Source: Bacteroidota bacterium
GTDB lineage: Bacteria; Bacteroidota; Bacteroidia; Bacteroidales; FEN-979
Reading direction: 5' to 3'
Length of the DNA: 64,000 nt
Assembly: GCA_026391835.1 (NCBI GenBank)
Contig: JAPLDF010000068.1
Coordinates: 313,661-377,660 of the forward strand
In this document: positions 11,580-50,035 of the stretch, piece by piece
How positions within the stretch are numbered: the first letter of the stretch is position 1
Layout: each line of letters opens with the position of its first letter
Translations under genes and position numbers: made by a program
Notes under the pieces: model-generated
What the model saw: the letters and a program-made list of their open reading frames with translations, nothing else
Database searches by the model: none
Told to the model about the DNA's origin: nothing

Positions 11580-11667
11580 GCCACCAAGGCACTAAGACAC
11601 AAAGGATCACGAAGATACTGCTGATTTCATTACTTTGTGTATCTTCGGGTCTTTGAGCCTTTGTGGC
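11580..11667. repeat. word-array hairpin (CACNAAG / GAAGATAC vocabulary) just after the M28 stop codon
   Basis: Left arm: gccaccaaggcactaagacacaaaggatcacgaagatac. The reverse complement of the right arm is gccacaaaggctcaaagacccgaagatac. The loop is ~15 nt. Confidence 0.85.
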
Positions 11668-11702
11668 AAAAACAGTCGATAAAAACAACATCTTCTATTC
11701 TA

Positions 11703-11733
11703 CAAAAAAGCCCCCGGAAAATCATCCGGGGGC
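11703..11733 (-). terminator. rho-independent terminator of rocD
   Basis: The stem is gcccccgga / tccgggggc with a 6-nt loop. On the minus strand it is followed by TTTTTTG. Confidence 0.75.
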
Positions 11734-11754
11734 TCTTAATATACAATGAATCAA

Positions 11755-12978
11755 CTATTCCATTTCTTTGATGGATCTGCGGATAATCTCCACTGCCTCA
11801 TGAACCTGCTCTTCGGTAATCACCAAAGGCGGGGCAAAACGGATAATGTGATCATGTGTGGGTTTGGCCAGCAGGCCGTTGTCGCGCATCTTCAGGCAAA
11901 CATCCCATGCCGTTTTCCCTTTGAATGGCTTGATGACAATGGCGTTCAATAATCCTTTGCCGCGGACCAGTTCGATGTACGGCGAGTTGATCTTGCGGAG
12001 TTCATCCCGGAAAATGGCGCCCATTTTTTCGGCATTCTCAGCCAGTTTTTCGTCACGAACCACCTCCAGCGCAGCCATGGCAACTTTTGCAGCAACAGGG
12101 TTGCCACCAAAGGTCGATCCGTGTTCGCCCGGATGGATGCACAGCATAATGTGATCGTCGGCCAGGACGGCAGAGATGGGATAAACCCCACCCGAAAGCG
12201 CTTTGCCAAGGATAAGTACATCCGGCTTAACGCCTTCCCAGTCGCAGGCAAGCAAACGGCCGGTGCGGGCGATACCTGTCTGCACCTCATCGGCAATAAA
12301 CAGTACATTTTTTGCCTTGCACATGTCGAAGGCCTTTTTCAGGTAGCCTTCATCCGGCACAAAGACACCCGCTTCGCCCTGGATTGGTTCAACCAGGAAA
12401 CCTGCTACATTCGGATCTTCCAGCGCTTTGGCCAACGCATCCAGATCGTTGTACGGAATCGCCTCAAAACCAGGGGTAAACGGGCCAAAGTCCTTGCGTG
12501 CATCAGGATCGTTCGACATGGAGATGACCGTGATCGTCCGTCCATGGAAATTGTCGCGGCAGCAGATAATTTTAGCCTGGTTTTCCGGAATTCCCTTCAC
12601 TTTGTAACCCCATTTCCGGGTAAGTTTCAGGGCGGTTTCATCTCCTTCGGCACCTGAATTCATCGGAAGAACCCGCTGATACCCAAAGTATTCAGTGATG
12701 AATTTTTCGTAAACCCCAAGTACGTCGTTGTAAAAGGCGCGGGATGTAAGTTCCAGCGTTTGTGCCTGTTCAATCAGGGCTCCCACGATTTTAGGGTGAC
12801 AATGTCCCTGGTTCACGGCGGAATAGGCCGACAGGAAATCATAATAGCGTTTGCCTTCGACATCCCACATAAAGACGCCTTTTCCTTTGGCAAGCACGAC
12901 TGGCAATGGATGGTAATTATGCGCCCCGTATTTGTCTTCGAGGTCGATCGCCATCTGTGATGTTTTTACTTCGGTCAT
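11755..12978 (-). CDS. rocD: ornithine--oxo-acid aminotransferase
   Basis: 407 aa. [12 protein letters not shown]...[16 protein letters not shown]...[14 protein letters not shown]...ILGKALSGG aligns along its whole length with B. subtilis RocD as I remember it. Confidence 0.9.
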
Positions 12979-12989
12979 AAGAGAAATTT

Positions 12990-14204
12990 TTATTGAATGA
13001 TGATTTTTTTAAATACTGACTGGTTGTCACCGTAAGATATCCTGACCTGGTAAACGCCACCAGGTATTTCATTTAATGCCACTTTTACCTCTTTTTGATC
13101 GAATGTGAAAGACCTGGAATAAACAATTTCCCCGACCATGGAAATAACTTCAACTCCAGAGATTGAATGGTTGGCGGTTATTGTGAATTGTTTATTGGTT
13201 ACCGGATTCGGCATCATGGTTACGTGCATGTCCAATTGCAGGTCATTGATTCCAAGGCGGGGCCTGAAATAAATCATGACGGTGTCGGACTGGGTTCCGT
13301 CGGGCCCGGTAACCGTACAATAGATTTTCTTGGAACCAAAACCAACACCGGAAGTGTCGATCTTCACAACCTTTCCATGGTCGCCTGTGGACCAGGAATA
13401 AGTATCAAATGTTCCGGCATCAAGTGTTACGGTATCACCCACGAAAACAGTCTGATCAGGGCCGAGATTCAATACCTGGGGATACAGTAGGGAAAGTTCA
13501 TCAACGTACATCGTGCTTCCAACCTGTCCGACACTGCCCATAAAATTGATCACATTAAACCCGGCGCTGGAGACAACAAGCAATGTCATCGTATCGACTG
13601 TTCCGGTTCCGGCATATTGTATGGGAATATCAAAATTGGTATAAGTGCTCACTGCATTGTGCCCGACAAATTTACCATAACCAATGGTATCGCGTTTTTT
13701 GGCAGAACTGTTCCATTTTGAAAGCAAAATGACCGCTGCACAGGAGTCACCGTTTACAGGTTCAAACTTGTAGTAGCCTTTTAAATGAGAGGGCCTGCAG
13801 CCTGCGCAGGGCTGACCCAGCAGGGCACGTACACCTACCATGTCCATCTTTGCTGTTCCGATCATGCCCGGAATAAATATGGTAATGGGTCCCAGCGGGA
13901 ATATATTGGAAACGCCTTTGGCTGCATAGGTTCCGGAATAACTATCCGTGCTCTTGAAAACCGTGACGGGGCCGGGGCCTCCAACGGAAAAAGGAAGGCT
14001 AGCAAGTGTGTTTAGGGTCGACATCCAGTTATCGGACGGGCCTGTCCCGATTTCATCATAGTTAAGGGTGGCATTTACCACCACATTGTACCAGGTTTCA
14101 AAACCGGCATTGGGAATAACAAAGTCACCGGTGGAGGATTTCGACTGGGAATAAACCGTGTTCATTGCCAGGGAAAGTAAGACAAATGTAATCAGGTGTT
14201 TCAT
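12990..14204 (-). CDS. secreted protein with T9SS C-terminal sorting domain (N-terminal domain of unknown function)
   Basis: 404 aa with a signal peptide. The C-terminal [17 protein letters not shown]...[22 protein letters not shown] resembles a T9SS CTD. Confidence 0.7.
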
Positions 14205-14214: not shown

Positions 14215-14312
14215 TTAAGTGTTAAGTGTTAAGTGTTAAGTGTTAAGTGTTAAGTGTTAAGTGTTAAGTGTTAAGTGTTAAGTGTTAAGTTTTAAGTGTT
14301 AAGTTTTAAGGA
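14215..14312. repeat. heptamer microsatellite (TTAAGTG)x10 perfect plus 4 degenerate units
   Basis: Counted directly. The period is 7 nt. It starts 10 nt upstream of the ATG (14204) of the T9SS protein gene and ends 34 nt after the TonB receptor stop. No inverted partner lies nearby. Confidence 0.95.
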
Positions 14313-16811: not shown

Positions 16812-18740
16812 CTAATTTTTCTCCCTGGAAACAGCGCCGGAACTGACTACCAATGATTTATATTCAATGGATGGGGACGGGATCAGCGGCCCAAGTTCCA
16901 GACGCGGCCACTTTTCATCAACGGCACGAATGGTTTGATCATCCATCACGATCACATTGGGCCAGTCGCGCTGAAAATCATCAAATTCCCTGGTTTTCCT
17001 TGTAGCATCCATGCAGAGTGCCGGAATTTTCACACCGGGTTCAGCATCGATGTAAAAACAATCTCGGATGGGATCGAGGTTGTTGGCTGAAATCCAGACA
17101 AGCTGCGACAGCGATGCCAGGTTAAGCAGGTCATCGACAAACAGGATAAATTTCACACCGGCAATATGTCCCTTCCCCAAGAGTTCGGCTGCGAGGGAGT
17201 GAATATGATGTTTTTTTGATTTCCTTACAGCGACGATAACCAGGGAAATTCCCCGACCGGGAAGGTCGCTTCTTATCCCGCGGATTTCGGGAAATAGTTT
17301 TTGAAGATCCGGAGAAAAGACCTCTCCCCCGTCCCCTCCCCTTGAAGGGGAGGGGGGCAGGGGCAACAGATCATTTAGCTCCTGGGGAAATTTGCGGGTG
17401 GCATCGATTCCCATTTTACTGCCATATGCAAAACGGCTGCTGGCGTGGTCGAGGATATCAACAGGCCCGCGGAGAAAGTGGATATCTGAAACCGGGTCGA
17501 CATTCGCGGAAATGGTTTTTGCAAGTTCAAGGTAGTCTGTAAGTTCCACCTCCTTGTCTGTTACCGCCATTATTTTATTGAACATCATCTGCCCTGCGCC
17601 CCACAGGGAGCTAATGATCTTGATGGCCTGTCCGGGATACTCCTTGTTGATGCTTACCAGGGTGATGTTGTGGAAAACCCCTTCAACCGGCATGTGCATG
17701 CCGGTTACCTCGGGAGCTACGGTCATCCGGATCGGCATAAGGAAGATCCGTTCGGTGGCTTTGCCAATCCAGCCGTCTTCCTGGGGAGGAATTCCCACAA
17801 TGGTAGCCGGGTAAACGGCATTTTTTCGATGGGTGATGCAGGTGACATGGAACCGCGGGTAATAATCGGCAAGCGAATAATAGCCGGTATGGTCACCAAA
17901 AGGACCTTCAAGGATCAGTTCCTCTCCGGGATCGACATACCCTTCGATCACAAAATCGACGTCCGACGGAACTTCCAGGTTGTTGGTAAGGCATTTGACA
18001 AGTTCGACTTTTTTCTTTCGCAAAAATCCTGCAAGCAGGTATTCATCCAGGTTTTCAGGCAATGGTGCCGTGGCTGCGTAGGTATACACCGGGTCGCCGC
18101 CGAGCGTGACAGATACCGGCATCCGTTTTCCCATCGCTTTGTACTGGTGATAGTGACGGGCCGATCCCTTGTGCAGGTGCCAGTGCATCCCGGTCATTTC
18201 AGGTGAAAAAACCTGCATGCGGTACATGCCCAGGTTCCGCATTCCGGTTTGCGGATCGACGGTATGTACGCCGGGCAAAGTAATGAAAGGGCCGCCATCA
18301 GCCGGCCAGCAGGTAAGCACAGGGATTTTTGTAAGATCAGGCTTATCCATCACAATCTCCTGGCATGCGCCGCGCCTGCTCACCGATTTCGGCATCCATG
18401 ACGCCACTTCCTGCAACGTCGGAAGTAATTTCAGCTTATCCAGGAAGCTTGCCCTGGGGCCAAGGATATCTTTCATCAAACGTGCCAGGTCAGTTTCAAT
18501 ATCGGCGAGGCTGTTCACCCCCAATGCCAGGCAGATCCGACGGTCGGAGGCGAATGCATTTATCAGCAGAGGAAACTGAGTTCCGGTATTTTCAAACAGC
18601 AGCGCCCTGCCCCCGTTTTTTACCATCCGGTCGGCTATCTCCGTTATTTCAAGGTTCGGGGAAACATACTCTCTGATGCGAACCAGTTCCCGGTTTGCCT
18701 CCAGTGCCTGGATAAAATGTGAAAGGGATTTAAAAGCCAT
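16812..18740 (-). CDS. UbiD family decarboxylase (menaquinone-biosynthesis decarboxylase-like)
   Basis: 642 aa. The N-terminus MAFKSLSHFIQALEANRELVRIREYVSPNLEITEIADR and the central region have UbiD-family character. It starts 26 nt after the ccmE stop. Confidence 0.8.
   Translation of the reverse strand: MAFKSLSHFIQALEANRELVRIREYVSPNLEITEIADRMVKNGGRALLFENTGTQFPLLINAFASDRRICLALGVNSLADIETDLARLMKDILGPRASFLDKLKLLPTLQEVASWMPKSVSRRGACQEIVMDKPDLTKIPVLTCWPADGGPFITLPGVHTVDPQTGMRNLGMYRMQVFSPEMTGMHWHLHKGSARHYHQYKAMGKRMPVSVTLGGDPVYTYAATAPLPENLDEYLLAGFLRKKKVELVKCLTNNLEVPSDVDFVIEGYVDPGEELILEGPFGDHTGYYSLADYYPRFHVTCITHRKNAVYPATIVGIPPQEDGWIGKATERIFLMPIRMTVAPEVTGMHMPVEGVFHNITLVSINKEYPGQAIKIISSLWGAGQMMFNKIMAVTDKEVELTDYLELAKTISANVDPVSDIHFLRGPVDILDHASSRFAYGSKMGIDATRKFPQELNDLLPLPPSPSRGGDGGEVFSPDLQKLFPEIRGIRSDLPGRGISLVIVAVRKSKKHHIHSLAAELLGKGHIAGVKFILFVDDLLNLASLSQLVWISANNLDPIRDCFYIDAEPGVKIPALCMDATRKTREFDDFQRDWPNVIVMDDQTIRAVDEKWPRLELGPLIPSPSIEYKSLVVSSGAVSREKN
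17321..17364. repeat. C/G-word hairpin embedded in frame in the UbiD-family CDS
   Basis: The sequence cctctcccccgtcccctcccc ttgaa ggggaggggggcagggg translates on the minus strand as PLPPSPSRGGDGGEV. Confidence 0.8.
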
Positions 18741-19378: not shown

Positions 19379-20038
19379 TCAATATTCGATATTCCTTTGT
19401 ATCTTCCTGATTCTTACCCGGATATTCATGATCCATACGCCAAGAAGTATCCATCCCAGCATCGCCGGATAAAAAACAACCCGCATGGATGGCTCCAGGT
19501 GCATCGGCAGCACCGGGGGTGAATCCTTCCCCGGGTGGATGCTGTCGCCGGCAAGGCGCGGCATGACCAGTACGAATACGATCCAGAGGAAAAAGGCAAA
19601 GATGTTGTATACCGCCGAAACCTTTGCGCGTTTATGCACATCGTCGATAGAGCCGCGAAGGATCATGTAGGCGAGGTATATGAACAGCCCGACGGCTGCG
19701 CCATTCAGTTTGGGATCCTTCACCCAGGGGGAACCCCAGGTGAAATTTGCCCAGATCATCCCGGTGAAGATACCCAGGAACCCGAACATAAGTCCCACAT
19801 TTACTGCCTCAACAGCAACAAGGTCCTCTGTCTCATCGAATTTCCTCAGATACCGTAAACTATAGATAAATCCGGTTATCAGCATGGAAAACATGCCAAA
19901 CCACATGCCTACGTGAAAAAACAGGTTCCGCATCGTTTCGTGGATCATGGTATCAGGAATCCCAACGAAAAACCCGAAACAGATCGCATATAAGAGCAGC
20001 AAGCCTGATAAAAACTTCCACCAATCCCTTTTTATCAT
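19379..20038 (-). CDS. ccmC: heme exporter protein CcmC
   Basis: 219 aa and polytopic, with the Trp-rich motif WANFTWGSPWVKDPKLNG. Confidence 0.85.
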   Translation of the reverse strand: MIKRDWWKFLSGLLLLYAICFGFFVGIPDTMIHETMRNLFFHVGMWFGMFSMLITGFIYSLRYLRKFDETEDLVAVEAVNVGLMFGFLGIFTGMIWANFTWGSPWVKDPKLNGAAVGLFIYLAYMILRGSIDDVHKRAKVSAVYNIFAFFLWIVFVLVMPRLAGDSIHPGKDSPPVLPMHLEPSMRVVFYPAMLGWILLGVWIMNIRVRIRKIQRNIEY

Positions 20039-20040
20039 TT

Positions 20041-20190
20041 TAGATTTACGATTTTAGATTTACGATTTAATTGCTTAGCAATCATTATAATGTTTATTTA
20101 CTTCCATCTTCAAATCTCCAAATCTTCAAATTTTCAAATCCCCTCTGCTCACTCCCAAATCGTAAATCGAAAATCGTAAATCGAAAATCG
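20041..20190. repeat. intercistronic word-array hairpin (AATCGTA/AATCGAA vocabulary) filling the ccmB-ccmC spacer
   Basis: The left arm is tagatttacgattttagatttacgattt (20041-20068). The right arm is aaatcgtaaatcgaaaatcgtaaatcgaaaatcg (20157-20190). A second word set, cttcaaatctccaaatcttcaaattttcaaatc, lies in between. Confidence 0.9.
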
Positions 20191-20191
20191 T

Positions 20192-20880: not shown

Positions 20881-20900
20881 AAAAAAAAGAGGCACCCGGC

Positions 20901-20925
20901 GCCTTCGACTTCGCTCAGGGGGCGG
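20901..20925. repeat. single copy of the CCTTCGACNNCGCTCAGGG word
   Basis: gccttcgacttcgctcagggggcgg uses the same word as the 24-bp tandem repeat at 31807-31878. Confidence 0.8.
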
Positions 20926-20990: not shown

Positions 20991-23003
20991 TTATTCAACA
21001 ATCATCTTCTGGGTATATTTCTGTCCGTTAACGATAACGGTTACAAAATAGATACCGGAGGTAAGATTGGTAGCATCAATGCTGAATTGCTGTGAACCTG
21101 AACTCATGTTTCCTTTGTTGAGTGACATCATCTGTTTTCCAACGAGATTTGTTACTTCAACAGTAACGTTTGCATTCTGTGTCAGGCTTAAAGAAACCTT
21201 TGCAATATCCTTTACAGGGTTCGGATAAACATTTACAGAAGCGATTTCAATCTGTTTCTGATCAACACCTACACCCGGGTTGGGTACAAGAAGCGTAAAG
21301 TCGCTGTCAACATAGGAGAAATCAGGAATATATTTGAATTTGGAATCGGCAGCTGCATCAGCAAACCACTGGGTACAGATAGGAATGGTGTATTTGTTGT
21401 TATCTGTGAAGATAATGGGGGAAGTACACTGCCAGTAAGCTTCCTGTGTAATGTCGCAAAGGAAGGTAACGTTGGTACCGCCGTTTACGCCATTGTCTGT
21501 TGTAAGTTTGTTTGTTTTGAGGTCAAAACCACGAGCCCAAACATCAGGATTCTGGTTATTGGTCTCACCATCAATGTGGGTATCATTCCAGGTGACAAAC
21601 ATTTTATCACCAACTTTGTTCCTGGCGATATAAACGCGGTTATCGCTGGTGTATGTAGCCCATGTTCCGCGGAATGTTTTGAGAGATCCGAGGAAAACAC
21701 CCTGCCATGTAGTTCCGCCATTGATGGAATAGATATCAAAAACATTGATAAGACTGTCAACGCCTGAGGAGATCGAATAACCACCCGGTGCATATCCAAC
21801 AGCAACTGCGATGTGCGGGTTGCCCATGTAGTCAACACTGATGTTGTGCTCAAATGCACAGGTATAGGGAATCTCGTCACGGGAAGGTGTCGGTGGGGTA
21901 AAGAAGTTGGCTAAGAAATAATCGCTGTAGCAATTTTTAATTGCGGCGATGCCGTTCGGGCCGTCAAGCTGGATCGCTTTAGGTTCACCCCAGGTTAAAC
22001 CACCATCAGTAGATTTTCTGACGATCGGGTAGTAGGTTGAATCGATAAGCGGGGAGCCATTCACATCATTGCCTAAAACGCTCATGTACATGGTCTGGCC
22101 ATCAGGTGAAGCGGCGATTTTGTTATCGGCGATGTTGTACATATCCTTGGTGTGGAATGCAATCTGCTTGTAGGTATAATCAAAATCTTTGGTGGTGGTA
22201 TTCCATACACCTCTTCCATAGATAACGCTGTCCTGGTAAACTACTGAACCTGACTCAACGTTGTTGTCTCCGTCAACCATGTATGCATAGTTGCCAGCGA
22301 TCGTGAATCCATCAGGAATGTAGGTATAAGGAGTAGGGTTGTACCATTTGATACGCTTGGTGGTATCGGCATGGTTAACGAGGTTCATTCTTCCGATGGT
22401 ATATCCACCGAATCCGCTGACAACCAGGTTGGCAAAGTTCGGACCGAAAAATGCGCAATATGCATTTGCAAGAGTGGTATTTCCTGCAGGATTGTAAATG
22501 GCGGCGCAAGGATACCTGCTGGCGTCATAATAATAAGGGGAAGAAACCATTGTGGCAGAAGTGGAAAGGATCTGGTTGGTCCAGTCAGCCTGGGAGGCAC
22601 CCATGTTCACACCAAGATCCGTGGCATAATACCCTGATAAACTCGGAGGAGTTGCGCCGGGACCAGCCCTGTGAAAATTGATAATGCAATTGAGATCATC
22701 GTCAGCCCAAACCATGGTCCTTGATCCGCTTGAATAGCCGAGAACGTTGGCAGAAGTACCGAGGTCAAGAACTGTGACGATGTTGGTGTTGTTGCCATTT
22801 TTCAAGCCTGAATGTTTGGCTGTGAAGGCTGAAGGAGAAATTTTTTCAACAGGCTCGATGGTAACTTTTTGATCTTTTTTGTAATTACGGACAAAAACAC
22901 CATTTTTAATCTGGGGTCTTTGTGCGACAACAGCCAGGCCAATGATAAATGCCAGACTCAGCAGTAAAAGTTTTTTCATGGTTTTTGGTTTTTGGTTTGA
23001 CAA
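20991..23003 (-). CDS. secreted protein with Asp-box motifs and T9SS C-terminal sorting domain
   Basis: 670 aa with a signal peptide. It has the motifs STDGGLTW and INGGTTW. The tail is VYPNPVKDIAKVSLSL...GIYFVTVIVNGQKYTQKMIVE. Confidence 0.75.
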   Translation of the reverse strand: MSNQKPKTMKKLLLLSLAFIIGLAVVAQRPQIKNGVFVRNYKKDQKVTIEPVEKISPSAFTAKHSGLKNGNNTNIVTVLDLGTSANVLGYSSGSRTMVWADDDLNCIINFHRAGPGATPPSLSGYYATDLGVNMGASQADWTNQILSTSATMVSSPYYYDASRYPCAAIYNPAGNTTLANAYCAFFGPNFANLVVSGFGGYTIGRMNLVNHADTTKRIKWYNPTPYTYIPDGFTIAGNYAYMVDGDNNVESGSVVYQDSVIYGRGVWNTTTKDFDYTYKQIAFHTKDMYNIADNKIAASPDGQTMYMSVLGNDVNGSPLIDSTYYPIVRKSTDGGLTWGEPKAIQLDGPNGIAAIKNCYSDYFLANFFTPPTPSRDEIPYTCAFEHNISVDYMGNPHIAVAVGYAPGGYSISSGVDSLINVFDIYSINGGTTWQGVFLGSLKTFRGTWATYTSDNRVYIARNKVGDKMFVTWNDTHIDGETNNQNPDVWARGFDLKTNKLTTDNGVNGGTNVTFLCDITQEAYWQCTSPIIFTDNNKYTIPICTQWFADAAADSKFKYIPDFSYVDSDFTLLVPNPGVGVDQKQIEIASVNVYPNPVKDIAKVSLSLTQNANVTVEVTNLVGKQMMSLNKGNMSSGSQQFSIDATNLTSGIYFVTVIVNGQKYTQKMIVE

Positions 23004-23014
23004 TAACGATTATA

Positions 23015-23022
23015 CAAATATA
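23015..23022 (-). promoter_or_regulatory. -7 box TAtaTTTG
   Basis: The reverse complement of caaatata is TATATTTG. It lies 12 nt upstream of ATG 23003. Confidence 0.35.
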
Positions 23023-23137
23023 GGTTATAAATTTTCAGATTTACAAAAGTATTACAATTAATCTTATCATGCAATAGTTTTTGTAAAATTTAACTTTTCA
23101 CAAGGGTTATGAGGGTTATCCCGATTTTTTTGCCTTC

Positions 23138-23773
23138 TTCACCGCGAAGACGCAAAGACGCTAAATTAACAATTTCCTGTATTACCTTTTCGGGTTAAAA
23201 CGATTAAGCATTAATCCTGCACTTTCTCAGAAAAGTTTTTCACCGCTAAGACGCTAAGACGTTAAGGTTTATATGATTGAAATTGTGCTATTTGCGTCTT
23301 TGTGATTAACAGTTATGTTTAAGTTTCCGGGGCGGGTTAAATGGTCTTTTAAAACATATTTAAATGGAAAAACAGAAAATGGAATATGTTGCAAAACAAA
23401 TTGTTGATGCTGGTTACAGGGTACATAAAGAACTTGGCCCCGGATTATTGGAATCGGTTTATCTCTATTGTTTTATGGAAGAGTTGAAATTAAGTGGGAT
23501 CAGAACTGAACAGGAGGTAGTGTTACCGCTTTTTTATCGAGGTAACAAATTGAATAAGGAGTTTCGTTTTGATGTCCTTGTTGAACAGGAGATCATTGTT
23601 GAAATCAAAGCTGTTGAAATTCTTCTGCCTGTGCATCGTGCACAACTGATTTCCTATTTAAAACTATCGAATAAAAAAATGGGATTTCTGATCAATTTTA
23701 AAGTGCCGGCTTTAAAGGATGGAATCCATCGTTTTGTCAACAATTATTAGCGTCTTTGCGCCTTTGCGGTAAA
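23138..23773 (+). other. hairpin-bounded cassette carrying the GxxExxY gene
   Basis: The left arm is ttcaccgcgaagacgcaaagacgctaa (23138-23164). The reverse complement of the right arm (23747-23773) is tttaccgcaaaggcgcaaagacgctaa, a 24/27 match. The gene's stop codon lies inside the right arm. Confidence 0.7.
23364..23750 (+). CDS. GxxExxY protein (PD-(D/E)XK nuclease fold family)
   Basis: 128 aa. It has the motif GPGLLESVY (GxxExxY) and the D..E.K-like FRFDVLVEQEIIVEIK. The size is typical of the family. Confidence 0.85.
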   Translation: MEKQKMEYVAKQIVDAGYRVHKELGPGLLESVYLYCFMEELKLSGIRTEQEVVLPLFYRGNKLNKEFRFDVLVEQEIIVEIKAVEILLPVHRAQLISYLKLSNKKMGFLINFKVPALKDGIHRFVNNY

Positions 23774-23797
23774 AAAGGCATTAAATTTTAATCTATG

Positions 23798-24082
23798 CTT
23801 AGTGTTTCTGGGTGATCTGAGTGCCTAAGTGGTTTTATTGCGCAAATCCTTTTCCTTAGTATCCGCAGGGATGATCGTTGAACGCTGGAATTGGGCATCC
23901 GCCTGTGTGTTTTTTTATCAGAAACCACAAATAACCTCATTTTTATAAGAATTCAAGATCGATTTCTATTTTATTCCAGGATATTTGCATTTAACAGCAA
24001 AAAGAAAACCACTGAGGCACTTAGGGCACTGAGAAACACTGAGATACTTAGTGGACCTGAGTGTCCTTAGTGCCTCAGTGGT
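23798..24082. repeat. word-array inverted repeats (CACTGAG/CACTTAG vocabulary) bracketing 170 bp of non-coding DNA, plus a self-contained hairpin
   Basis: The reverse complement of 23798-23834 is aaccacttaggcactcagatcacccagaaacactaag, which compares with aaccactgaggcacttagggcactgagaaacactgag at 24007-24043. In addition, 24009-24082 folds on itself (ccactgaggcac.../...gtgcctcagtgg). Confidence 0.85.
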
Positions 24083-24179
24083 AATCCATTCCCTATTCCA
24101 AACCAACAAAATAAGGAGCACCTCCCCTCCCTTGTTTTCTGCCAGCCAAAAATACAAGTCTAACCTTTACGTTATTAAT

Positions 24180-24187
24180 TATCTTTG
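24180..24187 (+). promoter_or_regulatory. -7 box TAtcTTTG for the lptF/G-like gene
   Basis: tatctttg is an exact TAnnTTTG match, 21 nt upstream of ATG 24208. Confidence 0.45.
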
Positions 24188-24207
24188 CATCGGACGTCAA
24201 TCTGCAC

Positions 24208-25641
24208 ATGAAAAAACTGGACTTATTCATACTTAAATCATACCTGGGCCCCCTGGTCATGACATTTTTCATTGCACTGTTCATCCTGCTGATGCAGTTT
24301 GTATGGAAGTATATCGACGACCTCGTGGGAAAAGGACTTGAGTGGTTTATCATTGTTAAACTGATGTTTTATGCATCTTCCACCTTTGTCCCCCTTGCCC
24401 TGCCGCTTGCCATCCTGCTTTCATCCCTGATGATGTTCGGAAACCTCGGAGAACACTACGAACTTGTTACCATCAAGGCTGCGGGGATCAGCCTGAGCCG
24501 GATCATGCGCCCGCTGATCGTTGTGTCGATCTGTATCAGCGCCCTCGCCTTTTATTTCTCCAATGTCATCCTGCCGTTCGCCAATCTCAAATTCCACTCC
24601 CTGTTGTTTGATGTCAGGGAGAAAAAACTCTCTTTCAACCTGAAAGAGGGAGTGTTCTATGACGGCATCGAAGGGTTCGTCATCCGGATCGGTAAAAAAG
24701 ACAAAGACGGGAACACGATCCGTGATGTGATGGTGTATGATCATACAAAACATCTCGGCAATGTGTCGCTTACCACTGCCGAATGGGGAAAGATGGAGCT
24801 TTCGCCGGATAAAAAATTCCTGGTGTTCAGGCTATACAATGGCACCAATTATGAAGAACGGGTCGATTTGCGGAACAACGAATCCACGCACCCATTCCAG
24901 CGTACCGAATTTTCGGAACAGTACCAGATGTTCGACCTCTCTGCGTTCCAGCTGACACGGACGGATGAAAGCCTGTTCAAGAAGAATTACGAGATGCAGA
25001 ATATCACCCAGCTGAGCCATTCAATCGACTCGATCAAGACCGATCTGGCCTCCGACCGTAAAGCGTATGAACTCAGTTTTATCAACAGCCAGCAGTTCTA
25101 TGACCGGAAGAGTAACCTAAGACGCAAAAAAGTTGATACCGTCAAGAATTTCAACCCGACCGTCATTTACAATTTCAAGGCGGCAGACCGTTTCAGGATA
25201 CTGGAAGCCGCCCTGAATTCGGCCAAAAGTGCAAAAGACAACCTGGAAGTCAGCAAGGACAATATCTACAATAAAAGCAAGCTGATCTTCAAACACCAGA
25301 TCGTGTATCATAAAAAATTCGCGTTTTCAATTGCCTGCTTCCTGCTGTTTTTCATCGGGGCGCCGCTCGGAGCGATCATCCGCAAAGGAGGCCTGGGAAT
25401 GCCTGCAGTTGTCTCGACCATGTTCTTTATCCTTTTCTGGGTGATCTCGTTCGTAGGTGAAAAATATACTGCCGAAGGCGTCGTTCCTGCCTGGCAGGGC
25501 ATCTGGTTTTCATCGGCGGTACTGATGCCGATCGGTATTTTTCTCACCGTCAAGGCAACCAACGATGCATCCCTGTTCGATGTGGATGCCTGGCTCAACT
25601 TCTTTAAAAAACTGTTTAAACTCCGCGAACGACGCATATGA
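24208..25641 (+). CDS. LptF/LptG family LPS export permease
   Basis: 477 aa. The N-terminus MKKLDLFILKSYLGPLVMTFFIALFILLMQ is typical of YjgP/YjgQ. Three N-terminal TMs, a periplasmic domain and three C-terminal TMs follow. Confidence 0.85.
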   Translation: MKKLDLFILKSYLGPLVMTFFIALFILLMQFVWKYIDDLVGKGLEWFIIVKLMFYASSTFVPLALPLAILLSSLMMFGNLGEHYELVTIKAAGISLSRIMRPLIVVSICISALAFYFSNVILPFANLKFHSLLFDVREKKLSFNLKEGVFYDGIEGFVIRIGKKDKDGNTIRDVMVYDHTKHLGNVSLTTAEWGKMELSPDKKFLVFRLYNGTNYEERVDLRNNESTHPFQRTEFSEQYQMFDLSAFQLTRTDESLFKKNYEMQNITQLSHSIDSIKTDLASDRKAYELSFINSQQFYDRKSNLRRKKVDTVKNFNPTVIYNFKAADRFRILEAALNSAKSAKDNLEVSKDNIYNKSKLIFKHQIVYHKKFAFSIACFLLFFIGAPLGAIIRKGGLGMPAVVSTMFFILFWVISFVGEKYTAEGVVPAWQGIWFSSAVLMPIGIFLTVKATNDASLFDVDAWLNFFKKLFKLRERRI

Positions 25642-26885
25642 GAATCCTTTTCCTGTGCAACAAATCGCCCTGGCCGCCAAAAGAGGGCGGACCGATGGCC
25701 ATGAACATGCTCATCGAAGGGTTGGTGGATGCAGGTCACCAGGTGAAGGTTCTGGCAGTCAACTCGTTCAAATACAATATTTCGGCAGATGACATTCCCC
25801 TCTCCTATGCCGAAAAAACCGGGATTGAACTGATCGATGTCGACTTGCGCATCAAGCCCGTGGATGCCTTTTTAAATCTCTTCACCGGTGAATCTTATCA
25901 TGTCAGGCGTTTCATCTCCGAAAAATTCAGGACCCGGCTGATTGAGATCCTCAGGGCTGGCAAATTCGACATCGTTCAGCTCGAAACCCTGTTCATGGGT
26001 CCGTATATCGGCACCATCAGGGCAAATTCTCCGGCGAAAATCATACTCAGGGCGCACAACATCGAACACCTCATCTGGGAGCGGATAGCAGAAGAGACAA
26101 AAAACCCGGCCAGGAAGTGGTACCTGAACCACCTGGCCGTAACCCTAAGGAATTACGAACAGAAAACCGCCATGGAAGTCGATGGCATCCTGGCAATCAC
26201 CCCCAAAGATGCCGGATACTTCACCACCCTGACTACCCACCAAAATCGTAAATCCGCAATCGTAAATCGTAAATCCGATATCTCCCCAATCCCCGTCACC
26301 GCCCTTCCCTTCGGCCTCGATCCTGCAAAATACCGTGTTGATCCAGTTGATCTCGAATTTCCATCCCTTTTTTCCCTGGGATCGATGAACTGGATTCCGA
26401 ACCAGGAGGGGATCCGCTGGTTTCTTGAGCAGGTATGGCCCGATATTCACAACCAATTTCCCAAACTCAACTATTATATTGCCGGACGTGAAATGCCAGG
26501 ATGGATGCGCGCCCTGGCTCTGCCAAACGTGGTGGTGCTCGGCGAGGTGGAGGACGCCAGGGCTTTTCTTGCATCAAAGGCCATCATGATCGTTCCCCTC
26601 TTTTCAGGAAGCGGCATCAGGGTGAAAATCATCGAAGGGATGGCTTGCGGGAAGACCATCATTTCAACCAGCATCGGGGCGGAGGGGATCAGCTGCACAC
26701 ATCGCGAAAATATCCTCATTGCCGACGCTCCGTGCGAATTTTTCGAAATGATCTCCATTTGTATCACAAACCCTGCCCTGTGCAATAAAATAGGAAAACA
26801 GGCCCGGGCACTGGTCGAAACGGCATACAACCCCACGATTCTGATTCAAAAATTGTTGACTTTTTATCAGGAACTCACGGGATAG
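25638..26885 (+). CDS. glycosyltransferase family 4
   Basis: 415 aa. The start overlaps the upstream stop (ATGA). The N-terminus is MRILFLCNKSPWPPKEGGPMA. The C-terminal half, ...PLFSGSGIRVKIIEGMACGKTIISTSIGAEG, is a GT4 E-x7-E type region. Confidence 0.85.
   Translation: MRILFLCNKSPWPPKEGGPMAMNMLIEGLVDAGHQVKVLAVNSFKYNISADDIPLSYAEKTGIELIDVDLRIKPVDAFLNLFTGESYHVRRFISEKFRTRLIEILRAGKFDIVQLETLFMGPYIGTIRANSPAKIILRAHNIEHLIWERIAEETKNPARKWYLNHLAVTLRNYEQKTAMEVDGILAITPKDAGYFTTLTTHQNRKSAIVNRKSDISPIPVTALPFGLDPAKYRVDPVDLEFPSLFSLGSMNWIPNQEGIRWFLEQVWPDIHNQFPKLNYYIAGREMPGWMRALALPNVVVLGEVEDARAFLASKAIMIVPLFSGSGIRVKIIEGMACGKTIISTSIGAEGISCTHRENILIADAPCEFFEMISICITNPALCNKIGKQARALVETAYNPTILIQKLLTFYQELTG
26243..26277. 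repeat. AATCGTA-type word array inside the GT4 CDS, read in frame
   Basis: aaatcgtaaatccgcaatcgtaaatcgtaaatccg encodes part of HQNRKSAIVNRKSDISP. The vocabulary is the same as at 20157-20190. Confidence 0.85.
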
Positions 26886-28100: not shown

Positions 28101-28203
28101 AATGCAGGCAATTCAAACAATGCAAACAATGCAATCAATGCAGACAATGCAGGCAATGCAGGCAAATTTTTTTCATTTTGATTTTGATTTTTGATTTTTG
28201 AAA
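28101..28203 (+). repeat. (AATGCANNC)x7 nonamer array followed by an (ATTTTTG)-type T-rich array, ending 9 nt before the ettA ATG
   Basis: Nonamer units: aatgcaggc aattcaaac aatgcaaac aatgcaatc aatgcagac aatgcaggc aatgcaggc. They are followed by tttttttcattttgattttgatttttgatttttg. Confidence 0.9.
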
Positions 28204-31708: not shown

Positions 31709-31806
31709 AACGACTTTTTAAATGCCGGGGTAAACGTACAATAAATCTTCATACGGAAGTTATTTCAAAGGTAAATTTTTATAGGCAGACGGGGAAAACA
31801 CCTCAC

Positions 31807-31878: not shown

Positions 31879-31915
31879 CCCCTGAGAAACTGTCTTAAAA
31901 GCATGAAACCTTATT

Positions 31916-32553: not shown

Positions 32554-32670
32554 ATTGTTCAGAAAAGTGTGTCAGGGGGACTTTTGCAATTTGTTTTCAA
32601 ACGGAACGGTAATGGTATGAATTAATATCCGAAATTTGAGTCCGCTTCGATAAGTAAAAAAAGCAAGAAG

Positions 32671-34680: not shown

Positions 34681-34761
34681 AATGCAGGCAATGCAGACAA
34701 TGCAAATAATGCAGGGAATGCATAAAGAGAACCCCAGGTAATTTTTAATTTTTAATTTTTA
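34681..34761 (+). repeat. (AATGCANNN)x5 nonamer array followed by (ATTTTTA)x3, ending 10 nt before the hutH-like ATG
   Basis: The sequence is aatgcaggc aatgcagac aatgcaaat aatgcaggg aatgcataa ... attttta attttta attttta. The composite layout matches 28101-28203. Confidence 0.9.
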
Positions 34762-34771
34762 ATTGAATCCT

Positions 34772-36295: not shown

Positions 36296-36320
36296 CAACT
36301 GATGCTAAACGTCTAATTTA

Positions 36321-36512
36321 GAGTCCGCTCCGAAAAATAATAAAACAAAGAAATGCCACTAAGCCACAAGGACACCTGGAAACACAAAGTGATAAATATC
36401 TGCAGCATAAGCCTGTTGAACCTTTATGACTCTGTGACCATGTGACTCTGTGACCTTGTGACTCTGTGACTTAGTGACTTTGTGTCATATAACTATTTTT
36501 CGGAGCAGGCTC
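36321..36512. repeat. nested hairpins: an outer stem with a word-array hairpin in its loop
   Basis: The outer stem is gagtccgctccgaaaaata (36321-36339) against tatttttcggagcaggctc (36494-36512). The inner arms are gccactaagccacaaggacacctggaaacacaaagtga (36355-36392) and tgactctgtgaccatgtgactctgtgaccttgtgactctgtgacttagtgactttgtg (36427-36484). Confidence 0.85.
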
Positions 36513-36539
36513 AATTTATAAACCTTAAAAAACAGCATT

Positions 36540-37816: not shown

Positions 37817-37833
37817 GTTATTGTCTGTTCAAA

Positions 37834-38055
37834 TTTCCCAGCCAAAATAAAATGCTGAAAGTATGATTACCTTTTCCCGTTTTTCCGATTAAGCAATAAT
37901 TAAGGACAGCAATATCCCTTATGATGAATTAATCTGGTGTCAACCGCTCTGTGCTTCTCCGGGTGTGATCTGTGTCTCTCTGTGCAACAAATAATTACAC
38001 GGAGGGTCACAGAGATCTGTGAAGAACCACAGAGAGAAAAAACGAAATAATTCCC
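37834..38055 (+). repeat. composite element copy A: conserved ~100-nt module plus CACAGAG-word hairpin plus short tail
   Basis: tttcccagccaaaataaaatgctgaaagtatgattaccttttcccgtttttccgattaagcaataattaaggacagcaatatcccttatgat... is followed by the hairpin 37947-38036. It is near-identical to copy B over the first ~130 nt. Confidence 0.9.
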
Positions 38056-38187
38056 TTATCTTTGTACAGGTAAAGTTTAAGTTGCTCAGCTTTATGCATG
38101 CGCCCACCCTTAAAAAATATTTCTGGTTTCAATCTTCGTGAGGTGTCCGTATAGTTTTTTAGTACAGGACAAGGCAGGATTTATTAT

Positions 38188-38245
38188 AGCTTATACAAAG
38201 CTTATACAACAGCTTATACAAAGCATATGCAATAGCTTATACAAC
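38188..38245. repeat. 11-12-nt tandem words (agcttatacaa[a/c]) x5
   Basis: agcttatacaa agcttatacaac agcttatacaa agcatatgcaat agcttatacaac. Confidence 0.85.
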
Positions 38246-38363
38246 GACAGATCAACGTTGCATAATTTCAGGTACATTTATTGGATTATCAGGTAATAAT
38301 GGCGAAGAATGCAGCTCCTCGCCAACCCTCGCCCAGGATGAGGACCCCCTCCCCGATCCTCCC

Positions 38364-38590
38364 CATGGAGGCTACTCTTTATACAAATCTTTCCCAGCCA
38401 AAATAAAATGCTGAAAGTATGATTACCTTTTCCCGTTTTTTCGATTAAGCATTAATTAAGGACAGCAATATCCCTTATGATGAATTAATCTGGTGTCAAC
38501 CGCTCTGTGCTTCTCCGTGTGAGCTCGGTGTCTCTGTGTAACAAATAATTACACGGAGGTTCACGGAGATCCGGAGAGAACCACAGAGAG
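38364..38590 (+). repeat. composite element copy B (with the 5' extension catggaggctactctttata shared with copy C)
   Basis: The module is 38390-38502 and the hairpin is 38503-38590. The hairpin arms differ from copy A at many positions while the module is almost identical. Confidence 0.9.
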
Positions 38591-38606
38591 GTCATTATAA
38601 ATCAGT

Positions 38607-48252: not shown

Positions 48253-48305
48253 TTTTCATATCTCAACCCAGCGTACAATGTGCTCTGGACCAGGTCCATT
48301 CCTAA

Positions 48306-48351
48306 AAGAGCGATGCCTCAAAACATTTGATTGTTTTGAGGCATCGCTCTT
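48306..48351. terminator. perfect 20-bp hairpin between convergent genes
   Basis: The stem is aagagcgatgcctcaaaaca tttgat tgttttgaggcatcgctctt. On the minus strand it is followed by TTTT. Confidence 0.7.
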
Positions 48352-48371
48352 AAAAATATTAATTTCAGAAC

Positions 48372-49178
48372 CTACTTGGATTTGGCTACTTCACCAAATC
48401 TGAAAATATAACCAACGGAGAATCCAAAATTCCGGTTACACAGTGGATAGTATGGCAATAAGTCATTGTTTGAAGCATAGTCATTATAATCGGTTTTCTG
48501 ACCGGCTGTGGGATTATCCACGCCAATGAATCCCCAGTTATACCTGAAATCCAACACAAGGTCGCCAGGTCCCAGACGCACACCCGGCTGTACACCAAAC
48601 GTAAGGCCTGCGTCGAGCCTCATGGCTTTGTATGCACCTCTCGGGCCACCTGTTTTGCCATTGTCATCGGAAGTCTCTCCCTGTCCAAACTCAACGGTGT
48701 ACTCCTTTTTCTGGGTCGTGTTTTCATAATATTTTTCATTTGCACCGAGCGCAACACCCACATAAGGTCCGATGATCCCATAAACACTGAACATGCCGAA
48801 TTTATAACCGCCTTTGAAGAGAATTGGCATGGTGAAATAGTTGTATGTTGCTGTAGATTTGTATTCAATTGTTTTTCCGGAGATATCGCTTGAATTTGTC
48901 ATCTTAGAACCTTTTTGTTCAAAATTAAACTCTATTTCCATACCAAACATTTTACTGAACATTGGGTTTAACACAAAGCTGACCTGCAACCCGATTTTAG
49001 GCGGATTTAAAACTGATGCATTAACGAAATCGTCACTCACAAGTTTTGACCAGTTCGAATATTTGGATGCTGTCATACCGAATCTCATCCCAAGACCAAA
49101 GCCCTGACTGAATGATTCAAATGAGGAGATCACCAACAGGGATACCAGAATTGCACATAGTAGATGTTTTGTTTTCAT
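48372..49178 (-). CDS. outer membrane beta-barrel protein (porin-family, OMP_b-brl type)
   Basis: 268 aa with a signal peptide, and typical Bacteroidota small-barrel features (GFGLGMRFG...; C-terminal ...GYIFRFG). Confidence 0.7.
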   Translation of the reverse strand: MKTKHLLCAILVSLLVISSFESFSQGFGLGMRFGMTASKYSNWSKLVSDDFVNASVLNPPKIGLQVSFVLNPMFSKMFGMEIEFNFEQKGSKMTNSSDISGKTIEYKSTATYNYFTMPILFKGGYKFGMFSVYGIIGPYVGVALGANEKYYENTTQKKEYTVEFGQGETSDDNGKTGGPRGAYKAMRLDAGLTFGVQPGVRLGPGDLVLDFRYNWGFIGVDNPTAGQKTDYNDYASNNDLLPYYPLCNRNFGFSVGYIFRFGEVAKSK

Positions 49179-49516
49179 CGTGTTGAGGTTTAGTTAATAA
49201 TTGGTTTATATTAAATTGCTCATGTGGAGTTTAATTCAATGGCTCATTTGGCTTTTCGCACCTCTTGATGCGACAAATATAAAAAAAAAACATGTTGTTG
49301 TTCAGTTTTTGTGAAAAGTTTATCAATTATTATCCGCGTAACATTTCTATCATATATTCCGGCTGGCTTATCGGGATATTTGCCTGCAATTTTAGCGTCA
49401 TGCCGGAACACATATGTTTTTGATGTTTTAAGTAAAAAGGTTTCACGCAAATATGATTATTACGGAAACGAATCCGGCAAAACAAAAGGAGCATACTCCT
49501 GTTCGGGCTCGTTTTT

Positions 49517-50035
49517 CATGGAGGCTACTCTTTATAGACGTCTTTCCCAGCCAAAATAAAATGCTGATAGTTTGACTACCTTTTCTTGTTTTTCCGATTA
49601 ATCAATAATGAAGGATGGCAAAATCCCTTATGATTCCTAGCTTCTGACGCTTCTCTATTTTTGTGCGATGCCATTTTTCAAGTAATTGAATTTGAATGAA
49701 GCAACCGAATTGCTGGCAATATTTGTTGCGAGCATTAAAACGGGTAAGCTGGATACCGGGGGAAAAGTACGAAGTATAAAGTACAAAGTACAAACGAAAG
49801 TGGGAAGTACAAAGTTCGAAAGACGAACACTGGCATGCTAATCCCAACCTTTGTACTTCGTCATTCGTACATCGTACTTCGCGGTGTACCGCACAAAATG
49901 TCAGAAGTCAGGAACTGGAGTTAACCCCTCTGTGCTTCTCCATGTGGGCTCTGTGGCTCTCAGTGTAACAAATAAATTACACGGAGGTTCACAGAAATCT
50001 GGAGAGAACCACAGAGAGAAAAACCGAAATGATGG
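49517..50035 (+). repeat. composite element copy C, split by a ~280-bp nested insertion
   Basis: The module is 49517-49634 (about 10 substitutions versus copy A). The insertion is 49635-49914. The hairpin and tail are 49915-50035 (ccctctgtgcttctcc...accacagagagaaaaaccgaaat). Confidence 0.9.

Follow-up and report, generated by a model that had tools for sequence, protein, structure and literature searches.

We report that a small gene of the GxxExxY (PDDEXK_3) nuclease family lies inside a long hairpin of a Bacteroidota genome, and that arms built from short, periodic, inverted words surround nearly every copy of this gene examined elsewhere. The window, the whole stretch of DNA analyzed here, comprises 64,000 nt (contig JAPLDF010000068.1 of assembly GCA_026391835.1, positions 313,661 to 377,660). 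A first reading of its sequence, hereafter the original prediction, had noticed intergenic hairpins made of tandem 7- to 9-nt words and had placed all of them in one architectural family with a separate vocabulary at each site. That observation is largely real and its interpretation is partly supported: a hairpin design is shared, probably through a common generating tendency, but the sites are mixed and split into at least two groups. Probably they combine shelled nuclease elements and their empty shells (class A) with tandem arrays (class B) of the kind called long simple sequence repeats (LSSR), to which the short tandemly repeated repetitive (STRR) heptamers of cyanobacteria are comparable.

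The same shell design is seen in the intervening sequences (IVS) of 23S rRNA. It suggests a hypothesis for two old puzzles, the nature and spread of intervening sequences and the origin of patchy intergenic heptamer arrays. In practical terms, such repeats break metagenome assemblies (most close GxxExxY homologues are on contigs of 1 to 2 kb), create spurious open reading frames (ORFs), and can pass for regulatory RNAs.

The window carries sorting tails of the type IX secretion system (T9SS), SusC/SusD genes, and ccmB-ccmC-ccmE. The nearest genomes in a species-level collection are freshwater and sediment metagenome-assembled genomes (MAGs) labelled Bacteroidales, Prolixibacteraceae, or Draconibacterium. 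CcmC identity to them reaches 93%, and synteny extends over ~20 kb in ~50 species. Compared loci are labelled with L-numbers; they include 80 ccmC loci, and the syntenic loci of the clade total 0.87 Mb.

A nuclease gene in a shell of periodic words

No transposase, integrase, or RAYT-like gene (encoding a transposase associated with repetitive extragenic palindromic [REP] sequences) had been noted in the window. None is present, but a PD-(D/E)XK nuclease gene, intact within the hairpin at 23126-23785, had been overlooked. The element consists of the following parts (strand in brackets where one was assigned).

23126-23164 (+): 5′ shell arm, a T-run followed by CACCGCGAAGACGCAAAGACGCTAA, with GACGCNAA words (inverted repeat)
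23165-23242 (+): element leader, TGTATTACCTTTTC...CGATTAAGCA.TAAT, conserved in L173 (two copies), L168, L082, and three 203-nt repeats of the window
23240-23305: small inner hairpin, CACCGCTAAGACGCTAAGACG / TTTGCGTCTTTGTG, in the interval between leader and gene (sequence; tandem array 23244-23266)
23364-23750 (+): GxxExxY/PDDEXK_3 nuclease gene, 128 aa, the cargo of the shell (PF13366, TIGR04256)
23747-23785 (+): 3′ shell arm, TTAGCGTCTTTGCGCCTTTGCGGT followed by an A-run, overlapping the stop codon (inverted repeat, duplex test)

Arm pairing was evaluated for 13 arm pairs of the window, against mononucleotide-shuffled arms and against arms in which blocks of 7 to 9 nt had been permuted (200 permutations). 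The shell arms, 39 nt each and 582 nt apart, are 85% complementary, with a duplex energy of −48 kcal/mol and a block-permutation fraction of 0.005. Pairing in the inner hairpin is weak and no better than that of permuted blocks. The leader possibly carries a Bacteroidota-type promoter.

The gene product matches Pfam PF13366 (2.7e-38) and NCBIfam TIGR04256 (4.2e-40), and residues D70, E80, and K82 are invariant across 54 homologues. An AlphaFold2 model (pLDDT 95.6) has an alpha/beta nuclease fold. Its best solved neighbor is Cas4 SSO0001 (E 5e-4, TM-score ~0.5), followed by lambda exonuclease and RecE at much weaker, nonsignificant E-values; a sequence search of the PDB found nothing. The invariant D...ExK signature and the nearness of the model to Cas4 indicate that the 128-aa protein is a minimal nuclease with a predicted Cas4-like core. 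The function of GxxExxY/PF13366 was listed as unknown in a survey of PD-(D/E)XK proteins (PMC3424549). The family is large (6,899 relatives at E ≤ 1e-10 from the window query alone), and a tblastn search for a second GxxExxY gene was negative for the window and for the 80 ccmC loci.

Relatives of the gene were examined at 80 metagenomic loci (41 to 70% protein identity), 68 of which had both flanks and entered a word count. A strict test required at least 2 sense words within 120 nt upstream and at least 2 reverse-complement words within 120 nt downstream; 26 of the 68 GxxExxY genes passed, compared with 2 of 998 control genes. When relaxed to at least 1 word on each side, the test was passed by 40 of 68 and 4 of 998, respectively. 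Most GxxExxY loci that failed the strict test have variant words, such as CAGAT or ACAGAAA. At nearly all 80 loci, arms of CGCAGAG, CACAGAG, CGCAAAG, or CACGGAG words stop 0 to 30 nt before the ATG and resume 0 to 36 nt after the stop codon. CGCAGAG, CACAGAG, and CGCAAAG lead the count of non-AT 7-mers in the flanks. Words are spaced 8, 9, or 10 nt apart in 25, 40, and 24 cases, which together with the words themselves fits the 7- to 9-nt period and the CACNNAG and GACGCNAA vocabularies described earlier for the window. Most loci have 2 to 5 words per arm before the ATG, and word number varies between loci.

Annotated records also show the shell layout: in Bacteroides finegoldii it lies between radA and the adjacent gene, in Gemmatirosa each flank has a complete hairpin, and Sphingomonas parapaucimobilis has it as well. 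A Treponema GxxExxY gene is flanked by a plain inverted repeat, which brings inverted arms around the gene to four cultured bacteria from four phyla. The Sphingomonas element sits between fabD and fabG, where Sphingomonas paeninsulae has an armless spacer of 32 nt; the arms therefore travel with the gene. The exact boundaries of the element could not be fixed from this pair at 74% identity. In the S. parapaucimobilis record (L162, 592-1020), the annotated GxxExxY coding sequence (143 aa) crosses the downstream arm to a later stop codon; as annotated, the gene is probably too long and reaches into the shell.

Decay of the gene was seen at two loci. L082 shares 24 of 26 arm positions with the window; its gene is 70% identical and has a premature stop, and the spacers are unalignable. 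L173 (9495-10430, in a 5.27-Mb genome) holds an intact element beside a decayed one, in which both arms and the leader survive and the gene is cut down to its last ~40 codons, between leader and second arm. At 54 of 61 loci, the gene and its upstream neighbor have the same orientation, which fits an element riding on host transcripts. In six independent metagenome assemblies (L167 to L172), the same GxxExxY protein (P0004) is encoded upstream of an EF-G-like gene, and all six contigs end 246 to 318 nt upstream of the GxxExxY gene. This suggests that a repeat at that position breaks the assembly, as expected for repeated flanks.

A search of 1.4 Mb of loci for other cargo in word shells or strong inverted repeats returned the GxxExxY gene and ordinary host genes only; no four-helix-bundle gene was among them. 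In the literature searched on GxxExxY, PDDEXK_3, PF13366, and the words, no link to flanking hairpins was found.

Gene-less hairpins and tandem arrays

The tandem 7- to 9-nt words and long imperfect hairpins of the window exist, and tandem-repeat calls cover most of the named sites. Tandem Repeats Finder (TRF) called arrays at 14215-14310 (7 nt × 13.7, 96% matches), 20037-20069, 20106-20140, and 20157-20191; at 23143, 23244, and 23750 (all 8 nt); at 28101-28165 (9 nt × 7.2), 28170-28201, 31807-31880 (24 nt × 3.1), 31921-31944, 34681-34722, and 34739-34764; and at 36427-36484 (8 nt × 7.2), 49764-49794, and 49849-49881. Sites missed by TRF (11580, 23798-24082, 37947, 38503, and 49925) were recovered, with words in phase, by a pattern for degenerate arms, CACNN[AG]G N1-3 repeated at least 3 times; its count was 8 arms for the window, compared with 0 for five block shuffles of 1.38 Mb. 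Inverted repeats of 28 to 51 nt with 73 to 94% complementarity lie where they had been described. Whole-gap folding z-scores, computed against dinucleotide shuffles, are −4 to −8.6 in seven gaps (11570-11754, 20039-20191, 23751-24207, 31709-32670, 36296-36539, 37817-38606, and 49179-50097).

All 13 arm pairs clearly beat mononucleotide-shuffled arms (for example, −55 compared with −18 kcal/mol), and 6 of them (11580, the gene shell, 23798/24002, 24010, 20037, and 49925) also beat block-permuted arms (fraction ≤0.05). At 36355, 37947, 38503, 49765, and 23243, pairing does not exceed the expectation for two arrays of complementary words. The proposed AT-rich loops were confirmed, since hairpins with loops of 3 to 20 nt have a loop GC content of 0 to 0.31, compared with 0.39 to 0.58 in the arms. 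A comparison of G·U pairs between strands revealed no consistent asymmetry.

Other parts of the original prediction need revision. The claim that such sites fill most intergenic gaps holds between 11.5 and 50 kb, where tandem words or hairpins occupy 13 of 19 gaps of at least 100 nt, and for no gap outside that stretch. Placement directly after stop codons applies to many sites, which start 0 to 10 nt from a stop. The ORF map puts all sites in intergenic DNA, including the two thought to lie in coding sequence; 23747-23773 alone overlaps a stop codon, by 4 nt. The sites share a design and are not simple copies of one sequence, as had been proposed, but the claim of a different vocabulary at each site was overstated: CACNNAG is common to six sites, GACGCNAA to three, and AATGCANNC and CCTTCGAC to two each, and the sites at 37947, 38503, and 49925 are one repeat with 85 to 93% identity. 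Three supposed hairpins proved to be plain tandem arrays (14215-14312, folding z −0.7/+1.5; 28101-28203, z +1.9; and 34681-34761, where folding is weak), and the supposed word site at 20901-20925 is part of an ordinary terminator-like hairpin with a T-run on the minus strand.

Ten sites of the window, one of them the shell around the nuclease gene, are hairpins whose arms consist of C[AG]C-N-[AG]AG words spaced 8 to 10 nt apart. This first group is linked to the GxxExxY element by a common word core, by arms, or by the leader. Its gene-less members, and an unclassified repeat beside one of them, are as follows.

11580-11667: solo CACNAAG hairpin, 10 nt past the stop codon of an M28 peptidase gene (gap z −6.0/−5.2; permutation 0.015)
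23798-24043: long-range CACNNAG inverted repeat, arms 23798-23839 and 24002-24043, 162-nt loop
24004-24086: compact CACNNAG hairpin with a 3-nt loop (51-nt arms, 73% complementary, −54.7 kcal/mol, permutation 0.01)
31807-31880: 24-nt tandem repeat × 3.1, CCTTCGACTACGCTCAGGGCAGCG (TRF, 96% matches), unclassified
31915-31995: solo GACGC-word hairpin, a gene-less shell with arms of the GxxExxY element (28 nt, 86% complementary)
36353-36486: hairpin of a CACNNAG arm and a (GTGACTNT)x7.2 arm, in the gap between the hutH-like and DUF5684 genes (z −5.6/−8.6)
37834-38036 (+): 203-nt dispersed repeat, copy 1, with decayed arm, leader, and CTCTGTG/CACAGAG hairpin (92.6% identical to copy 2)
38390-38590 (+): 203-nt dispersed repeat, copy 2 (repeat and leader alignments)
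49543-49634 (+): 203-nt repeat, copy 3, left part (89% identical to positions 19-110 of copy 1)
49635-49914: 280-nt palindromic insert nested in copy 3 (outer stem 49639-49675/49880-49916)
49915-50018 (+): 203-nt repeat, copy 3, right part with the hairpin (85 to 87.5% identical to copies 1 and 2)

The 42-nt arms at 23798 and 24002 are 81% complementary (−55.4 kcal/mol), and 0 of 200 permutations were as good. Their 162-nt loop contains the remnant of an internally deleted gene of ~400 aa. On the minus strand at ~23860-23960, this gene is reduced to its first ~15 and last ~20 codons, joined by the deletion; it is intact between LptF and the T9SS-tailed gene in L004, L006, L010, L015, and L016 and lost in L002. 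L006 has a hairpin of the same word type at the position of 24004-24086, and the position of the 11580 hairpin holds other contents or plain terminators in relatives. Within 31915-31995, 27 nt are 92.6% identical to the 5′ arm of the element at 23137-23164. The neighboring CCTTCGACTACGCTCAGGGCAGCG word is shared within the window with 20902 only and has a loose likeness in L039. Pairing at 36353-36486 is no better than that of permuted blocks (0.195).

The sites at 37947, 38503, and 49925 are the hairpin ends of the three copies of the 203-nt repeat. The 5′ part of the repeat aligns with the element leader, which also precedes the close homologues in L173, L168, and L082, and with an arm in decay. 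The 280-nt palindromic insert, itself containing inverted GTACNAA arrays (49762-49796/49848-49882), splits copy 3 at a point where copies 1 and 2 run on without a break, in agreement with the earlier description of nested sites. The stretch that separates copies 1 and 2 contains an 11/23-nt tandem repeat (AGCTTATACAA x5) at 38188-38244, which the original prediction did not list.

Other repeats occur beside the GACGC hairpin. At 32368-32552, a 53-nt tandem repeat (x3.2, 97% identity) contains a 32-nt unit, ACCACGTTGAAACTGCGTACAAGCAGGTAGAA, that resembles a repeat of a CRISPR array. A CRISPR array was rejected: the 21-nt "spacers" are identical, there is no cas gene nearby, and the word arrays are spacer-free. 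Hairpins at 32100-32300 are GC-rich and unlike the word hairpins, with GACTCCGTAGGAGTC and a T-run at 32120-32136 and 20-nt arms (CGGCCCTGTAGGGGCCGGAT / ATTCGGCCCCTACAGGACCG, 90% complementary, 83 nt apart) at 32172-32294.

An Rfam scan of the whole window at gathering thresholds gave no match and no rRNA. Permissive scans of 31.7-32.7 kb and 37.8-38.65 kb gave sub-threshold matches to microRNA precursors alone, because long hairpins are present. Terminator and promoter scans of the window showed no enrichment over shuffles. Intrinsic terminators (GC-rich stem, short loop, U-tract) were considered for the word hairpins and rejected; U-tracts are absent, and none of these hairpins was called, the only site called being 20904-20890 on the minus strand.

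The remaining sites, mostly plain arrays of the second group, are as follows.

14215-14310: plain array (TTAAGTG)x13.7, between a TonB-dependent receptor gene and a T9SS-tailed gene; no hairpin
20037-20191: ccmB/ccmC spacer, inverted ATTTACG-type arrays (20037-20068 and 20157-20191) around (ATCTTCAA)x4.4
20890-20925 (−): terminator-like hairpin and T-run after a T9SS-tailed gene, with a CCTTCGAC...GCTCAGGG word (terminator scan)
28101-28201 (+): plain arrays (AATGCAGNC)x7.2 then (TTTTGA)x4.7, filling the glycosyltransferase/ABC-F gap; no hairpin
34681-34764 (+): plain arrays (AATGCAGAC)x4.7 then (TAATTTT)x3.7, upstream of the hutH-like gene (TRF)

The arms of the ccmB/ccmC spacer (32 nt) are 94% complementary (folding z −5.3/−4.7). 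Array-array duplexes reach −0.18 kcal/mol per nt at 28101-28201 and −0.05 kcal/mol per nt at 34681-34764. The TTAAGTG word family was found at 8 loci in a count of canonical words (for example, L004, L014, L019, L033, and L042). A weak AAATCGT x4.7 array (76% matches), with a word of the ccmB/ccmC spacer, lies at 26243-26275 in a glycosyltransferase ORF (25638-26885) and may be due to chance.

Such arrays characterize the clade. Counted at periods of 5 to 12 nt with at least 3 copies, their density per 100 kb is 20.3 in the window and 24.6 in the clade loci, compared with 1.8 in Sphingobacteriales/Flavobacteriales and 0.36 in shuffles. Periods of 7 and 8 nt account for 135 and 56, respectively, of the 213 arrays in clade loci. 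Together, clade loci and window have 174 of 226 arrays (77%) between genes, in sequence that is 92% coding. Many arrays abut a stop or start codon, and ~27 of 136 finish within 5 nt of a start codon. The ccmB/ccmC spacer measures 7 to 10 nt in most Sphingobacteriales-type outgroup loci, compared with 6 to 348 nt within the clade, where its words vary by species (ATTTACG, AATTACG, AATGACG, GATGTGCT, GCATTCCT, ATTTGGGG, TGGTAAT, and CTGGATA). Species also differ in the LptF-side gap, which is occupied by a CACNNAG or a GACGC hairpin in some and by a GTGTTAA or a GATGCAG array in others.

Only 8 of 52 adjacent arrays are complementary beyond the control tail, and the medians equal those of a cross-gap control (Mann-Whitney p = 0.22). 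Pairs of arrays with the same word are direct in 25 cases and inverted in 20. Words recur: related array pairs make up 20% within a locus and 6.9% between loci, and AAATCGT forms 21 arrays in 16 loci. The plain arrays are therefore not organized around hairpin formation, and their vocabulary is limited and partly genome-specific, not site-specific. Hairpin formation as a selected feature of these arrays was likewise rejected, inverted and direct pairs being equally common.

Slippage alone does not account well for two observations. In the ccmB/ccmC spacer, TTACGA words occur on the ccmB stop side only (10 spacers) and TCGTAA words on the ccmC start side only (4 spacers), the window being counted in both; the two occur together in the window and L010, and the side preference persists across species in which CcmC has diverged to ~72% identity. 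At L011 (9778-10000 and 10661-10730) and L012 (9500-9655 and 10316-10450), inverted AATGCAG-type arrays bracket ccmC and covary in word, period (8 compared with 9 nt), and mirrored order across the 660-nt gene, with a duplex of about −115 kcal/mol. In some relatives, terminators of the aminotransferase gene (L013, ~18250-18320; also L008, L005, L011, and L015) have heptamer stems followed by a T-run, built, for example, of GTGACGA x4 paired with TCGTCAC or of GTGAACA x2.

Origin of the word hairpins

Given the association of gene and shell documented above, we infer how the element may spread and be processed and what its nuclease may do. The C[AG]C-N-[AG]AG hairpins would be the terminal inverted repeats of a small selfish element with a T-run, a purine-word arm, a leader of ~75 nt, the GxxExxY/PDDEXK_3 gene, a complementary arm, and an A-run. 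The window would then hold one intact element (23126-23785) and about nine gene-less derivatives, namely, the solo hairpins, the three 203-nt repeats, and the nested insertion. The element usually follows a host gene closely and shares its orientation, so co-transcription with that gene is probable. By analogy with IVS, the arms may pair into a long stem that RNase III cuts, and the RNA of the element would thereby leave the transcript of the host. For the nuclease, the most likely substrate is arm-bearing DNA, through either homing-type copying into related hairpins or conserved intergenic sites, or excision and insertion, and loss of the gene would leave shells that persist. The class B arrays would draw on their limited, partly genome-specific words and expand, contract, and be replaced quickly, most simply by replication slippage, making a hairpin only where two arrays of the same word stand in opposite orientation. 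The same tendency toward 7- to 8-nt duplications would also mold class A arms and ordinary terminators, which may be why all sites look like one design.

Several results weigh against this proposal. No target-site duplication is visible at the gene shell or at the junctions of the nested insert (49634/49635 and 49914/49915), and no nucleotide-exact empty site was found, the LptF gap of the window's relatives having entirely different contents; the compared species are too divergent for either. Mobility of the element is conjectural, and cleavage by RNase III is proposed by analogy. The sense strand has no clear G·U bias: duplex energies favor sense in 23 loci and antisense in 24, G·U pairs number 193 compared with 146, and an alignment count gave 126 G·U and 150 A·C. 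The CACTNAG hairpins at 11580, 23798-24086, and 36355 are tied to the nuclease by word family only and not by a local gene. Word hairpins or inverted arrays also bracket ccmC (L002, L011, and L012) and a GNAT-like gene (L006 and L015), so that the nuclease gene is not the only one with a shell. Independent slippage alone does not readily explain the recurrence of words such as AAATCGT, and classes A and B may be closer than we have stated.

Other explanations account for parts of the data. The sites might be by-products of mutation, arising from lineage-specific duplication of 7 to 9 nt and quasi-palindrome template switching in neutral DNA into which the GxxExxY gene merely lands. The lineage-specific density with its dominant periods of 7 and 8 nt is consistent with this, as are the differences in copy number and word variants between sister genomes (L011/L012 and L046 to L048), the mutational series formed by words such as ATTTACG, AATTACG, and AATGACG, and the filling of gaps up to stop or start codons. 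We nevertheless consider it unlikely, since the word core and layout around GxxExxY are kept across four phyla, including genomes outside the lineage, the Sphingomonas empty site is armless, and the L082 arm is conserved next to diverged spacers; moreover, growth in situ does not fit the 203-nt repeat with its nested insert, which represent dispersed copies, and words recur at nonorthologous sites. Still less probable is the leading idea of the original prediction, that all sites are one class of RNA hairpins selected for structure (terminators, 3′-end protectors, cistron insulators, or elements resembling REP sequences and bacterial interspersed mosaic elements [BIMEs]), with incidental words. 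The start of many sites close to stop codons, the heptamer-built aminotransferase terminators, and the covariation across ccmC speak for it. The rarity of complementarity among adjacent arrays (8/52; p = 0.22), the equal frequency of direct and inverted pairs, and the three window sites that fail to fold speak against it, together with the missing U-tracts and terminator calls (from a scan itself no richer in calls than shuffles) and the lack of a consistent G·U bias. As a general explanation, selection on RNA structure also conflicts with the ccmB/ccmC spacer, whose contents are wholly replaced among close relatives and which shrinks to 6 to 17 nt in some of them.

We give slightly less credence again to the idea that a regulator binding RNA or DNA uses the arrays as platforms, with one factor per word family. 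Such a role has been proposed for TAACTGA repeats upstream of start codons (MacGregor 2015, PMC4679880), and it would suit the arrays that end next to start codons, the limited and recurrent repertoire, and the constant side of TTACGA words despite CcmC divergence. However, word families are many and candidate factors lacking, words are exchanged or the whole array is gone in orthologous gaps, and both orientations relative to genes occur. That low-complexity sequence was misassembled or misbinned is extremely improbable. Repeats do disturb assembly, as the short contigs of close homologues and their frequent breaks upstream of the gene indicate, but a separately assembled Logan contig (SRR20698638, 1471 nt), which may come from the same sample, is 100% identical to 22971-24441 and spans four sites. 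More than 50 MAGs of other projects, as well as complete records of isolates, contain the same designs, which are therefore not an assembly artefact.

Extending the favored mixture of nuclease elements and tandem arrays, we tentatively raise a broader possibility that we think more doubtful than not. GxxExxY genes with periodic-word arms might form a widespread, undescribed class of selfish elements related in design to IVS, whose Cas4-like nuclease would recognize the arms and drive copying into hairpins or conserved intergenic sites. Empty shells and shed arms could then seed intergenic tandem-word DNA in whole lineages, such as this Prolixibacteraceae-like clade and perhaps heptamer-bearing Cyanobacteria and Beggiatoaceae.

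Comparison with known systems

The closest known relative is the 23S rRNA IVS with an S23p ORF (PF05635), for example, in Coxiella burnetii and Leptospira. The C. burnetii IVS is a 428-nt element, described as selfish, with a 28-bp terminal inverted-repeat stem that is cut by RNase III; 3 to 4 tandem GACAGAT heptamers, strain-variable in number, directly precede the start codon of the decaying S23p ORF, and the IVS is co-transcribed with the host RNA and has no known means of spread (PMC4990558). In both systems, terminal inverted repeats make up a long stem around a small and often decaying ORF, and the CAGA-core heptamers of Coxiella correspond to the 2 to 5 words before the ATG here. The cargo differs, being a PD-(D/E)XK nuclease (PF13366/TIGR04256) and not the S23p four-helix bundle, and so does the location, between protein-coding genes instead of in helix 25 or 45 of 23S rRNA (the window has no rRNA match). 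In addition, many empty shells are scattered here.

REP sequences and BIMEs, which the original prediction named as an analogy, remain a useful one. Like them and like the REPINs that accompany RAYT genes, the sites described here are multicopy, extragenic, imperfect palindromes, with a single-copy enzyme gene flanked by inverted repeats and far outnumbered by gene-less copies. However, RAYT (TnpA_REP) is a Y1 (HUH) transposase of the IS200/IS605 type, and the enzyme here is a 128-aa PD-(D/E)XK nuclease; no RAYT, Y1, or HUH domain was found in 30 proteins scanned between 9.2 and 51.2 kb. Each REP family has one conserved sequence of 20 to 40 nt, in contrast to periodic 7-nt words with variable positions, and within the 64 kb the extragenic copies share a word core and vary in sequence. 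Miniature inverted-repeat transposable elements (MITEs) such as Correia, ERIC/IRU, RUP, and BOX are likewise small, intergenic, noncoding hairpins with inverted ends and nested insertions, and some are cut by RNase III (PMC3184786). They differ from the elements of the window, where neither a target-site duplication nor a transposase-encoding parent insertion sequence was found and where the arms are periodic words instead of unique terminal inverted repeats.

For the class B arrays, the nearest counterparts are LSSR, which have units of 5 to 11 nt according to the summary of Mrazek et al. (2007) in PMC4679880. As summarized there, LSSR are tandem, most commonly heptameric, and abundant in scattered lineages only, with slippage proposed as their origin, which fits 14215, 28101, 34681, and the arrays of relatives. 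Arrays of the window and clade have the head-to-tail units, predominance of heptamers, mostly intergenic position, and lineage-specific abundance of LSSR and STRR. They differ from both in that arrays share gaps with long inverted pairs and sometimes form them, and in that sites and species of one Bacteroidota clade have their word repertoire in common. TAACTGA direct repeats, known from Beggiatoaceae, Cyanobacteria, and a few Bacteroidetes (MacGregor 2015, PMC4679880), are also intergenic heptamers, with a last copy that is often just a few nucleotides short of a start codon, and have a patchy phylogeny and no known transfer mechanism. TAACTGA itself is absent from the TRF array units of the window, and those repeats use one word in one orientation, whereas the arrays described here use many words in both orientations.

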